DNA of 64,000 nt from a virus. Lineage: Duplodnaviria; Caudoviricetes. The notes beneath the pieces are model-generated. The model saw nothing but the letters and a program-made list of their open reading frames with translations. It did not search any database and was not told the origin of the DNA. The stretch spans positions 14,009 through 78,008 of IMG/VR virus record IMGVR_UViG_3300013947_000035. One strand, 5' to 3'. The translations under genes were made by a program, and so were the position numbers. Below, one piece after another: positions 13,839 through 40,947 of this stretch (position 1 is its first letter; each line of letters starts with the position of its first letter).

Positions 13839-14597
13839 ATGAACGAAGAAGAAAAGAAGAGACTGAGTGACACTGAAGTCGATAGTGGCGAGAACGCGAA
13901 TGGCGCGGAATCGTCAGTAGCGAGTTCAGAAGTTGCGAACGGACAACCCGAACCGCAAGCAGAAACGGAAACGGAACCCACAACGGAACCCGAAGCGGAA
14001 GCGGCGTCAGTCTCAGATGATAGCGTTGACGGAAGCGAGAACGGACAACCCGAACCCGAACAGGAACAGCAACCGACGGAAAAGATGCTTACTCAGAGCC
14101 AAGTGAACGAACTTGTAGGCAGGGCGAGGCAAGAGGGGAGAGAGAGTGCCTTGAAAGAGCTATATGGACGTTATGGTGTAAGCGACGATACGGAGTTGAA
14201 TGACGTGTTTGGACGTGGACAAGCGTATATGTCTTTGGATGACGATTACAAAGTACAGCAAAGCAGCAACAAAGCGTTGTTGGCAGAGAATGCGTTATTG
14301 AAGACGAAAGTCGACGAGAGCAGGTGGGAAGATATAAAAGCAATCCTCGGCAGCAAGAATTTGGACATCACGCCTGAGAACATTGAAGCTGAAATCCCGA
14401 CGCACCCCGAATGGCGACAAGGCAATAGTGTCAATGTGGTGCAAGATTCACAACAGCAAGCAGTACCGCAACAGCAGCAACAGCAACAGCAAGCGGTATT
14501 GAGAAAGCTTGGAAGCGAATCGACGACAAACGGCGACGGTAGCGAAGAAGAGGAAGAACAAGAACGAGCATTTAGATTGTTCGGCTTTAATAAATAA
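13839..14597 (+). CDS. capsid scaffolding protein
   Basis: Acidic disordered N-terminus; KMLTQSQVNELV motif; coiled coil; just upstream of the capsid gene. Confidence 0.8.
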   Translation: MNEEEKKRLSDTEVDSGENANGAESSVASSEVANGQPEPQAETETEPTTEPEAEAASVSDDSVDGSENGQPEPEQEQQPTEKMLTQSQVNELVGRARQEGRESALKELYGRYGVSDDTELNDVFGRGQAYMSLDDDYKVQQSSNKALLAENALLKTKVDESRWEDIKAILGSKNLDITPENIEAEIPTHPEWRQGNSVNVVQDSQQQAVPQQQQQQQQAVLRKLGSESTTNGDGSEEEEEQERAFRLFGFNK

Positions 14598-35132: not shown

Positions 35133-35240
35133 CCTCGTATTATTGAGTAGTGCCGATAATTCGAGAAATACTAATAATGCGAGGGCAATCCTCTAATCAA
35201 GACCACGCACTACAATAGGTCAAGATTGGAGGATTTTTTT
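35133..35240 (+). promoter_or_regulatory. structured leader (two long hairpins) upstream of tnpB
   Basis: CCTCGTATTATT/AATAATGCGAGG (35133-35184); AATCCTCTAATC/GATTGGAGGATT (35187-35235) covers the GGAGG RBS. Confidence 0.7.
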
Positions 35241-36308
35241 ATGAAAGCATTCAAGACCAGAATATACCCAAATGCGGAACAAACCGTTTTAATCGAAAAG
35301 ACTTTCGGTTGTTGTCGCTTTGTCTATAATAATGGTCTTGAATGTAAAATTGATGCCTATAAGAAAGATAAAACGAACCTATCTGCTTATGATTTGATAA
35401 AAAGAATCACAACTCTTAAAAAAGAATTCGAGTGGTTGAAAGAAGTCGAATTGCACACATTGCAGCAGTCGATTCTTGATTTAGAAAAAGCATATAAGAA
35501 CTTTTTTAGAGAACATAAGGGATTCCCTAAATTCAAGAAGAAAGGCGACAAAGATAGTTTTAGGACGTTTAATATGCGTTTTGTATCACGTCATTTCATT
35601 TATCTTCCGAAAATTGGAGCGGTAAAAATTGCCGAAAAGATAAAAAAGAAGTGGAGCATACATAATGCGACTATAAGCAAAAGAGCAGGGAAGTATTTTA
35701 TCTCGCTATTAATCGATTACGAATCACCAAAAGTCCAAAAGACAGGTGAAGTTGTCGGAATCGATTTAGGCATTAAGACATTTGCGACCTTGTCAGATGG
35801 AACTAAATATGAGAACCCAAAGACATTAAGCAAATACGAGGACAAGATTGCAAGATATCAACGACAATTAAGTCGAACTCAAAAAGGAAGTAACAATCGC
35901 AAAAAGGTTAAAGAGAAATTAGCCCGATTGCATTTGAAAGTATCTAACATTCGGCAAGACTATTTGCATAAAATGAGCCGCGAGATAGCCAATCGTTACT
36001 CGTTTGTTGCGATAGAGGATTTAAATATTGCAGGAATGGTTAAGAATCACAATTTAGCCAAGAGCATATCCGATTGCAGTTGGGGCGAATTCGTCCGTAT
36101 GCTCGAATATAAATGCTCGTGGTATGGTTGTGAACTGCGTAAAATCGGTCGATTTGAACCCAGTAGCAAGTTGTGTTCAAATTGCGGATATAAGATGAAC
36201 GAAATTCCGTTAAATATCCGAAAATGGACTTGTCCTAATTGCGGGACGCACCACGACCGAGACGTAAACGCCGCAATAAATATTTTGAATATAGCACAAG
36301 AAAAATAA
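35241..36308 (+). CDS. tnpB: RNA-guided endonuclease TnpB (IS200/IS605/IS607 family), no tnpA
   Basis: HTH N-terminus (KTRIYP, FGCCRFVYN); RuvC residues GIDLG / IEDL / DRDVNAA intact; CxxC..CxxC zinc finger. Confidence 0.95.
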   Translation: MKAFKTRIYPNAEQTVLIEKTFGCCRFVYNNGLECKIDAYKKDKTNLSAYDLIKRITTLKKEFEWLKEVELHTLQQSILDLEKAYKNFFREHKGFPKFKKKGDKDSFRTFNMRFVSRHFIYLPKIGAVKIAEKIKKKWSIHNATISKRAGKYFISLLIDYESPKVQKTGEVVGIDLGIKTFATLSDGTKYENPKTLSKYEDKIARYQRQLSRTQKGSNNRKKVKEKLARLHLKVSNIRQDYLHKMSREIANRYSFVAIEDLNIAGMVKNHNLAKSISDCSWGEFVRMLEYKCSWYGCELRKIGRFEPSSKLCSNCGYKMNEIPLNIRKWTCPNCGTHHDRDVNAAINILNIAQEK

Positions 36309-38568: not shown

Positions 38569-39303
38569 ATGAATAAGAAAGTTTTGCATACGATGATAAT
38601 CCTCTGCTGGGTGTTTCTTGGCGCATATGCGTTATTAAAATTAATCCCGCAGTTGGCTGATAAATTTGTGATTGCTGTCAATAACGAGCGTATAGTTGAG
38701 GCGGGTAATTTTGTTGACGAACACGTTTGGTTACAACAAATCGTATATGGACTGACGACATTGCTTACATATCATTTCTATTTATGCGCTTGTTGTCATA
38801 AATGGCGTTTGTCTTGGAAACAATACATCGTACTTATTGTTGCCATTATTGCCGCAAACACATTGAAATATTATGTCTCTGAAATCGCTGTCCAAGTAAA
38901 TGTATTAATAATGGTAATTTATCCGTTCTTATTGAAAAGCGATTATAGAACATTTATAATTATATTCATAACACATTCTGTTGGGCAATTATTGATTAGT
39001 TTTATTCGAGGGGCAGAAATGTCGCTTGCAGACTGCAATACATTGACGTGCCTAATATGTTGTTTAGATATGTATGTATGGCTATTGCTATACTACTTAT
39101 ATGCAAATCTATATAAAGGAGAAAAATTTATGGGTAACGTTGCGCCTCCGTTTTGGGGCAAAATGAACAAAGAAATCGACGCAGAAATTGCGTCTCTCGA
39201 CAAAAAGATTGCCGAGTGCAAGGACACAGAACAACGCAAGAAATACGAAGCTAAAAGGGCTGAATATGAAGAAATGCGCGTTAAAACTTCTGACGAGAAG
39301 TAA
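38569..39303 (+). CDS. polytopic membrane protein (sensor-like) with charged C-tail
   Basis: ~6-7 hydrophobic segments; strong internal AAGGAG-N8-ATG at 39130. Confidence 0.75.
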   Translation: MNKKVLHTMIILCWVFLGAYALLKLIPQLADKFVIAVNNERIVEAGNFVDEHVWLQQIVYGLTTLLTYHFYLCACCHKWRLSWKQYIVLIVAIIAANTLKYYVSEIAVQVNVLIMVIYPFLLKSDYRTFIIIFITHSVGQLLISFIRGAEMSLADCNTLTCLICCLDMYVWLLLYYLYANLYKGEKFMGNVAPPFWGKMNKEIDAEIASLDKKIAECKDTEQRKKYEAKRAEYEEMRVKTSDEK

Positions 39304-39916
39304 AATCGTTATAAAGCACGCCCTGCACTGGTTATCGGTGCAGGGTAAACTTTATTTGCGAGGGATTCCACAATTATTCTTGGTAACAATATTGTTGATT
39401 CCTGCCGCATATTTTACAGGCAAATATATCGAAGCAATTTTCCAAATTATTGCGTTGTTTGCGCTTCGGTATAAATTCCCTAAAACTTATCACGCCGATA
39501 CGACTATGAAATGTACTTTTGTGACGTTAAGTATCGGGTATCTTGCAATTCCGAGAGTTTTGCCTACGAACGTTGCTTTGTTTAGCGCGATATTTGTCAG
39601 TTTCGTTATCGCATTTCTCTCGTGGTTGGCACAAGAATTTATCGACCGAAAGAAACGCATAGCCGAACTCGAAGCCGCGCCTGTTTCCGAGCCATTATCG
39701 TTCACAACTTGTTCGCGAGAAGAATTCGATATGTTGTGTGTAAATAACGGAATCAAGTCAAGCCGCATAGAATATGTTTGGGATTTACTTCGAGGCAAAT
39801 TATCAACATCTGAAATGATGGACAAATATTGCGTAGCCGAAAAAACAATTAGTCAAGACCGTTGGCGATACAGAAAAAGATTTTCTAACCCTATTGACAA
39901 CGGCGAATTGAAATGA
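39266..39916 (+). CDS. AgrB-like membrane cysteine peptidase fused to a C-terminal HTH
   Basis: FALRYKFPKTYHADTTMKC has the AgrB LR...H-x6-C signature; C-terminal LSTSEMMDKYCVAEKTISQDRWRYRKRF is HTH-like. Confidence 0.6.
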   Translation: MKKCALKLLTRSKIVIKHALHWLSVQGKLYLRGIPQLFLVTILLIPAAYFTGKYIEAIFQIIALFALRYKFPKTYHADTTMKCTFVTLSIGYLAIPRVLPTNVALFSAIFVSFVIAFLSWLAQEFIDRKKRIAELEAAPVSEPLSFTTCSREEFDMLCVNNGIKSSRIEYVWDLLRGKLSTSEMMDKYCVAEKTISQDRWRYRKRFSNPIDNGELK

Positions 39917-39922
39917 TATTAT
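39894..39922 (+). promoter_or_regulatory. promoter driving the ncRNA island
   Basis: TTGACA(39894)-17-TATTAT(39917). Confidence 0.75.
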
Positions 39923-39926
39923 AAAC

Positions 39927-39982
39927 GTGTCGAAAGCGCAATACGAGGTCTTCTAAAAGTTCTCCCCAGCCTCGTTCGACGC
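39927..39982 (+). ncRNA. hairpin small RNA with C-rich loop
   Basis: GTGTCGAA/TTCGACGC outer stem; ACGAGG/CCTCGT inner stem; loop contains TTCTCCCCAG; begins at the predicted TSS. Confidence 0.45.
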
Positions 39983-40000
39983 AAAAAAAATTGCGCGTAT

Positions 40001-40056
40001 CGGCGACTCGCATCTTGTAGTGCGAATTGTAGGGGCAGTACCTACGTTGCCGACCA
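40001..40056 (+). ncRNA. 56-nt D-armless tRNA-like RNA with encoded ACCA
   Basis: CGGCGAC/GTTGCCG acceptor stem + ACCA; GTAGG/CCTAC T-arm with 7-nt loop; TCGCA/TGCGA hairpin. Confidence 0.6.
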
Positions 40057-40223
40057 GTAACCCTGCGGGTAGTGCGCATACCCGTTGTCCGAAGCTATTG
40101 GCGGATAGAGTTTAATATGGCATCGTGTTCGCGACCGATGCTATGACCACGCAAGCAGTTTTGTACTATGCACTATATGTAACATAGCCTGAACGGTTCT
40201 CGACAAAAAGTAAGCTTGCATTT

Positions 40224-40304
40224 GGGGTTGAGAATGGTTTCGATTGCACATAAAGCCGAAGCGCACTGTGCAAGAAACGAGTTCGATTCTCGTCAACTCC
40301 ACCA
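40224..40304 (+). ncRNA. 81-nt tmRNA tRNA-like-domain-only RNA (no mRNA-like domain)
   Basis: GGGGTTG/CAACTCC-ACCA with G3.U70; 13-nt AGAATGGTTTCGA D-loop; 7-bp TTGCACA/TGTGCAA helix; GAA linker; ACGAG-TTCGATT-CTCGT T-arm. Confidence 0.8.
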
Positions 40305-40494
40305 GCGGGTTTTTCACTGTTTCCAAGCCGTCAAAAAAACAGCGCGGGGCGTATTGATGTTTGCGCTCTGTAAAATAACATCATCGCACTTTGTCCGTTT
40401 CGGCGAATAAATGTGATAACGGAACGAAGCGCGAGGGGCGACGATAGCCCTGCAGTATCGCGTATAGAAAGGTGACACGCTATTCCTTTCAAAT

Positions 40495-40570
40495 GCAGGT
40501 ATGGCGCAATCGGCAGCGCAACTGATTTGTAATCAGTCGGTTGTCTGTTCGAGTCAGACTTCCAGCACCA
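40495..40570 (+). tRNA. trnT: tRNA-Thr (anticodon TGT), CCA encoded
   Basis: 76-nt cloverleaf; ACTGA-TTTGTAA-TCAGT anticodon arm; GTCTG-TTCGAGT-CAGAC T-arm; two acceptor-stem mismatches. Confidence 0.85.
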
Positions 40571-40802
40571 CCACTTTCACAATTCGAGAGAGCCGACTGT
40601 TTTTCGAAAAATTTTGGTCGATTTTCTCATTTCTATTGATTTATTTATGAATTTGTGTTAATATAAGTTTGTGTGAAGTGCTTATCAAGTATAAACCGTG
40701 CCGCCATTGCAGTGGCGACCAAAACACACTGTACTATGCACTATATGGGAGCATAGCCGAACAGACTGCACCTTGCGCTAAATATTAGTGAAGGTCAAGA
40801 TA

Positions 40803-40835
40803 AACCTGACACTATATGTGTCGGGTTTTTCTTTT
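40803..40835 (+). terminator. intrinsic terminator ending the ncRNA island
   Basis: AACCTGACAC-TATAT-GTGTCGGGTT-TTT. Confidence 0.75.
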
Positions 40836-40947
40836 TTTATACTTTTTGTAGATTATTTTTGCCGTTTGTAGACCTTTTGTAGGTAAACATTCGGCATTTT
40901 TTTCTTTTATCATCAAATTAGCAAAAAACGATAAGGCGGTGTGCTTT

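Follow-up and report, generated by a model that had tools for sequence, protein, structure and literature searches.

A phage gene for the tRNA-like domain of tmRNA without an mRNA-like domain, and its relatives

Sequence comparison identifies positions 40224–40304 (+ strand) of a tailed-phage genome as a real, conserved gene for tmRNA's tRNA-like domain (TLD) without the mRNA-like domain, here called the mini-tmRNA gene. The window is the whole stretch of 64,000 nt that was analysed (positions 14,009 to 78,008 of IMG/VR record IMGVR_UViG_3300013947_000035). The TLD-only type and the lead hypothesis on its action date from 2009 and are not new in kind. The breadth of the phage family is absent from searchable papers, and what was published as a curiosity of one phage turns out to be a large, almost unannotated family of phage RNAs.

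Anatomy of the mini-tmRNA gene

The gene and its parts are as follows.

40224–40304, +: mini-tmRNA gene (Rfam RF00023), TLD only, standard order, long class, 81 nt with encoded CCA
40224–40230, +: 5' strand of the acceptor stem, with G1, G2 and G3 of the alanine identity (from the sequence)
40231–40243, +: stemless D-loop of 13 nt, as in E. coli (compared with NC_000913.3)
40244–40273, +: helix 2a, 7 bp (strands 40244–40250 and 40267–40273), with a cap at 40251–40266
40274–40276, +: connector of 3 nt, G-A-A (E. coli: G333-A334-C335)
40277–40293, +: T-arm, with a 5-bp stem and a canonical 7-nt loop
40294–40304, +: 3' strand of the acceptor stem with U70, discriminator A73 and encoded CCA (from the sequence)

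An earlier note on this DNA had proposed a TLD-only tmRNA, an 81-nt RNA with a 7-bp acceptor stem, G3.U70, A73 and an encoded CCA, a stemless 13-nt D-loop, a canonical T-arm and a 7-bp helix, and we found every one of these elements in place. The acceptor stem pairs 40224–40230 with 40294–40300 (G1:C72, G2:C71, G3.U70), A73 lies at 40301 and the CCA at 40302–40304, and all TLD parts follow in the standard order (acceptor 5' strand, D-loop, helix 2a, connector, T-arm, acceptor 3' strand). The Rfam model RF00023 matches the RNA end to end with 56.3 bits (E 2e-19; gathering cut-off 47), 14 nt standing in for 308 model positions, and our family model R2, which includes the mini-tmRNA sequence itself, gives 80.4 bits; ARAGORN does not call the gene. 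Between the two strands of helix 2 there is no tag reading frame and no pseudoknot ring, and neither the Rfam alignment nor a frame search yielded a resume codon, tag or stop. The mRNA-like domain is thus missing, as the note had said; set against the 363 nt of E. coli tmRNA, about 280 nt are absent, rather than the 250 nt or so that had been estimated.

The same 81 nt are found in four independent assemblies (L272, L273, L276 and L277), so the gene is no assembly artefact. The protein-free minimum-energy fold is an alternative rod at -26.6 kcal/mol, 4.7 lower than the TLD fold (-21.9), and the TLD fold therefore rests on covariation and comparison, not on folding energy.

The D-loop keeps U17, C18, G19 and A20, the face turned to SmpB, with U in place of A at position 15. 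Structures of E. coli tmRNA name 15, U17, C18, G19 and A334 as bases in contact with SmpB, and A334 as part of the pocket for SmpB Trp122 (PMC8363625). The mini-tmRNA retains U17, C18, G19 and A334, and A15 -> U is the common state of the family. Together with G3.U70, these bases support the prediction that the RNA is charged and binds SmpB.

The helix had been thought to close on a plain 16-nt loop, which did not hold. Positions 40251–40266 instead form a conserved A-rich internal loop with a short hairpin, which together take the position of the entire mRNA-like domain. Long-class caps consist of an A-rich run followed by a small loop that is closed by the pairing of two C with two G. The mini-tmRNA cap is of a subtype that counts 29 sequences and shows covariation at the outer cap pair (GC 16, CG 6, UA 2, AU 1, unpaired 4). 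By eye it resembles the helix 2a/2b junction of E. coli tmRNA, and for this reason helix 2b is probably retained at its start in the long class and closed off there by the cap.

Three other identities were considered and rejected. A tRNA-Ala would need a D-stem and a 7-nt anticodon loop, both absent here; ARAGORN makes no call and the Rfam clan prefers tmRNA. A permuted two-piece tmRNA (an acceptor piece before a coding piece, with an intervening segment) shares TLD elements with our RNA, but its model RF04321 gives 16.6 bits against a cut-off of 47, the order is standard, as the note had argued, and there is no coding piece. An ssrA attachment-site remnant is at odds with the presence of both gene ends and with a genome in which neither a tyrosine nor a serine recombinase (PF00589, PF00239) was found.

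A family of phage RNAs and its known counterparts

Two IMG/VR pattern scans (at least 119 matches each), a genome scan, the kin loci and DS6A together gave at least 183 distinct relatives, a few of the genome hits being doubtful; 157 are 76 nt or longer and 26 are shorter. One pattern met no more than 26 stretches among 185,579 prokaryote genomes, mainly in genome bins; in four bacterial genome bins the mini gene is accompanied by a full tmRNA elsewhere. BLAST against cultured phages returned T-arm matches only. The 2025 tmRNA database of Nawrocki et al. lists 9 "standard, no CDS" entries among 97,179 sequences (PMC11915505); the DS6A-type RNA is far commoner in phages than catalogued. Phages of many habitats seem to have been selected to meddle with trans-translation.

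The first scan fixed G3.U70 by its pattern, and a later one left the acceptor stem free, with A73 imposed. In the resulting test, G1:C72 and G2:C71 occur in 90 of 90 sequences and G3.U70 in 89 of 90 (75 of the 90 were not preselected), while pair 4 varies. Covariation among phage homologues had been named in the earlier note as a check, and helix 2a and the T-stem do covary strongly. Across 63 long-class sequences, 92.5% of cells are paired, compared with less than 50% in slid registers. Helix 2a is 93% paired with two-sided changes at all 7 pairs, and the T-stem is 100% paired with covariation at 4 of 5 pairs. Two-sided changes fill 304 cells as compared to 93 in shuffles, none of 500 shuffles being as high.

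SmpB was not found in the source phage or in 50 other carriers (51 in all), so the SmpB partner must be that of the host.

The closest known system is the TLD-only tmRNA of Mycobacterium phage DS6A, whose reported effect is inhibition of E. coli tmRNA, perhaps through titration of SmpB (Mao et al. 2009, as relayed in PMC4131195 and PMC11915505). The mechanism that the earlier note put first, sequestration of SmpB to block trans-translation, is therefore already published for this RNA. We located it at JN698994 28478–28560 (tmRNA Website tmID 11587). Model R2, which was built without DS6A, gives it 52.3 bits (E 7e-13), whereas full tmRNA ends reach at most 33. Both RNAs are phage-borne, of standard order and about 81–83 nt long, with G3.U70, A73, a stemless D-loop and a helix 2a capped with an A-rich internal loop plus short hairpin, and both phages are without SmpB. 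They differ in sequence (about 64% identity), in cap subtype and in the encoded CCA, present in the source-phage RNA and absent in that of DS6A. Unlike DS6A, the source phage is from the gut, has no integrase and probably infects Bacillota, and its gene sits in an exchangeable island of tRNA-like RNAs. The searched literature, which left most subscription journals outside its reach, holds no described phage mini-tmRNA family beyond DS6A.

With standard tmRNA (RF00023) the mini-tmRNA shares the whole TLD, the alanine identity and the SmpB-contacting bases, and it differs in that pseudoknots, a resume codon, a tag frame and a stop codon are all missing from it. A TLD without a tag frame is also found in the CDS-less organellar tmRNAs, namely the mitochondrial RF02544 and the plastid tmRNAs of Mallomonadaceae of about 65 nt, which are conserved together with SmpB (PMC11915505). 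These are the only tmRNA of their compartment and mostly permuted, whereas the mini-tmRNA is viral and comes in addition to a full host tmRNA (the full copy being seen for four other carriers).

The RNA island and its exchange among kin

The source record is a 78-kb tailed phage with portal, capsid, terminase and primase genes. Its kin come from human gut assemblies, its capsid matches stay below 30%, and a Bacillota host is likely. The mini-tmRNA lies in a non-coding island of about 0.9 kb (0.9–0.95), between a promoter and a terminator and after an AgrB-like gene. The main features around it are listed here.

39894–39922, +: predicted sigma70/sigmaA-type promoter, 11/12 consensus, extended -10
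40001–40056, +: 56-nt D-armless tRNA-like RNA with an ACCA end, C1:G72 start and atypical T-loop
40305–40490, +: run of five short pseudoknot-like or hairpin units of about 27–41 nt each
40495–40570, +: tRNA-Thr(UGU), called by ARAGORN and Rfam
40802–40838, +: intrinsic terminator-like site closing the island, with a similar hairpin in L121 and L122
L278, 3342–4855 (L279 likewise): cassette of an AlwI-like endonuclease and a D12-class methyltransferase

The promoter is also present in kin L001, L121–L125 and L266–L270, and it probably drives the RNA island. The 56-nt D-armless RNA shows pair-keeping changes in L121, L122, L266–L268 and L270; it has no Rfam match, its pattern occurs only twice in IMG/VR, and its C1:G72/A73 acceptor end resembles that of tRNA-Pro. 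Of the units in the 40305–40490 run, four were drawn as pseudoknots of the H type and the fifth as a nested hairpin. They have compensatory changes in L122, L265 and L271 and no Rfam match, and the run moves independently of the mini-tmRNA. The unit size recalls that of type III antitoxin pseudoknots, and the units may possibly be antitoxin mimics.

ACCA sites are dense in the island, with six in 0.95 kb compared with about 2.7 per kb genome-wide. The whole + strand has six strong stems closed by such a site, and three of these are in the island.

The island is built in a very modular way, and the mini gene occurs in related and unrelated genomes. In L123 it is 93% identical with sharp ends, the flanking genes being about 80% identical. 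L121, L122 and L266, with flanks at 85–88%, carry a different allele with three T-loop versions; that of L121 and L122 is about 60–64% identical to the source mini-tmRNA, and in all three loci D-loop G13 -> A goes with T-loop U55 -> G. The gene is absent in L124–L126 and L269. In L278 and L279 the upstream flanks are 99.9% identical and 39942–40334 is replaced by the endonuclease–methyltransferase cassette. The unrelated phage L265 has the mini gene together with the pseudoknot run and tRNA-Thr, its mini gene bearing an A1:C72 mismatch and C18 -> U. Because kin carry other alleles, no gene or a restriction–modification cassette, the mini gene is accessory, exchanged among phages and placed in a slot for host-conflict genes. 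The locus thus offers natural experiments: strains with the RNA, without it, with divergent alleles or with a restriction–modification cassette instead.

Several further elements were observed on the + strand of the locus. A leader hairpin at 39929–39981, at the probable transcription start, is conserved in L121, L122 and L266. Two more ACCA-ended hairpins lie at 40115–40149 (a minihelix with a T-loop-like loop) and 40702–40721 (a microhelix). An exact direct repeat of 18 nt (40162–40179 and 40730–40747) opens a small hairpin at each copy, and one copy is kept in the distant kin L269. Just before the terminator, a conserved structured motif (40750–40800) has covarying stems in L121, L122, L124 and L125 and no Rfam match. 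Directly upstream of the island, 38569–39916 holds a membrane protein gene overlapping the AgrB-like gene (PF04647, 25 bits, cut-off 23), and a TnpB/IS605 OrfB-type gene lies at 35226–36308 among tail and membrane genes. Among kin, another D-armless tRNA-like RNA, with an 8-bp stem, a small hairpin and a canonical T-loop, follows the mini-tmRNA in L121 (after 2550), L122, L266–L268 and L270; in L001 its place is taken by an upstream tRNA-like RNA whose anticodon loop has 17 nt.

Possible roles in infection

Our preferred reading, which we hold with slightly better than even confidence, is that the mini-tmRNA acts as an alanine-charged competitor for host SmpB and stalled ribosomes, with a net block of tagging. 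Host tRNA-processing enzymes would cut a discrete 81-nt RNA from the island transcript. As the conserved determinants suggest, host alanyl-tRNA synthetase would charge this RNA, which would bind host SmpB and EF-Tu like the head of tmRNA. It would then vie with host tmRNA over SmpB and over access to non-stop ribosomes with an empty A site. The nascent chain would be accepted onto the alanine, and with no reading frame to resume, no ssrA degradation tag would follow, release being left to host back-up routes. The RNA would thus be a phage-borne dominant-negative on tagging, and phage products would be spared proteolysis.

A charged complex with host SmpB and EF-Tu very probably forms, because the alanine identity and the SmpB face are kept in a phage that has no SmpB. 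In accounts given in PMC3929946 and PMC8363625, TLD fragments bind SmpB and are functional on the ribosome in vitro. Competition is favoured because inhibition is the only in vivo effect reported for the DS6A type. Inhibition under over-expression in E. coli may not reflect the natural role, and blocked rescue could trap ribosomes that the phage needs. The gene is dispensable, being absent from near-identical strains.

The charged RNA may instead perform rescue without a tag, a role that we consider rather unlikely. Together with host SmpB it would enter non-stop ribosomes, take the chain, translocate and eject the broken mRNA, in a single round or in repeated rounds that would add a short alanine tail. 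Ribosomes would be recycled faster, which would be useful when defences cut mRNAs or the long host tmRNA, so that translation would be aided rather than hindered, as with the CDS-less tmRNAs of some mitochondria and plastids. Such a role explains the near-invariant alanine identity, and the strict G3.U70 in particular, better than competition does. The joint change of G13 -> A and U55 -> G fits a kept tRNA elbow, the pairing of D-loop and T-loop at the elbow being an established part of tRNA structure. SmpB with a TLD fragment gave template-free polyalanine in vitro (Shimizu and Ueda 2006, as relayed in PMC3929946), and the conservation of CDS-less organellar tmRNAs with SmpB points the same way (PMC11915505). 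However, the sole in vivo report for this type, as summarised in PMC11915505, is of inhibition, and in the absence of a stop codon the peptide would stay unreleased, so that a second factor would be needed.

It is more doubtful that the RNA is chiefly a decoy for host defences that recognise tRNA or tmRNA, any effect on tagging being incidental. Its targets would be toxins acting on CCA ends or charged tRNA, nucleases of the T-loop or acceptor stem, or proteins with an SmpB-like fold; CoCoNuT defence systems, for example, are predicted to have SmpB-like domains (PMC11090510). The island with its six ACCA sites in 0.95 kb, three closing strong stems, the three T-loop versions among close kin (L121, L122 and L266), and the restriction–modification cassette that replaces the segment next to 99.9% identical upstream flanks all agree with a decoy. 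A generic decoy, however, would have no need of an alanine identity together with an SmpB face, and both are kept in nearly all members, in unrelated phages; only about a quarter of carriers (26/104) have a tRNA within 1 kb.

A broader synthesis, which we offer tentatively as a minority view, is that the mini-tmRNA is more than an SmpB sponge and, once charged, forms the core of a widespread phage route that clears non-stop ribosomes with host SmpB and adds no degradation tag (or a template-free alanine tail), and that phages exchange it, along with other mimics of tRNA, as a cassette that counters RNA-cutting immunity. The 81-nt RNA itself is a ready natural tool for the action of a message-less tmRNA on the ribosome, in phages and in organelles.

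That the mini-tmRNA is half of a two-piece tmRNA, with the 40305–40490 run as coding piece, is highly improbable. The units stand directly 3' of the CCA both here and in the unrelated phage L265, and tandem pseudoknots recall the tmRNA ring. A separate coding piece, which the earlier note had named as a possible refutation, was sought and none was found, the run being the sole candidate: the window has no single-stranded gap or tag-like frame, and such frames lie near 3 of 178 carriers, as compared with 5 in shuffles. L278–L280 have the units but no mini gene, L001 and L121 have the mini gene but no units, and L122 no longer has a 6-nt complementarity to the cap. That the modules occur independently already largely refutes this reading.

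Equally improbable is a decayed tmRNA or attachment-site remnant without function, to which the accessory nature of the gene and the two substitutions in L265 might point, given the excess of two-sided changes over all 500 shuffles, the intact gene ends, the missing recombinases in the source genome, a tyrosine integrase in just 1 of the 19 carriers that are near-complete, and the L123 RNA that is better conserved than its flanking genes.

A minor observation concerns L168, a Christensenella bin contig that also carries a mini-tmRNA: at G001:C5:7181-7424 it has two 120-nt tRNA-like genes with very long anticodon-arm inserts.
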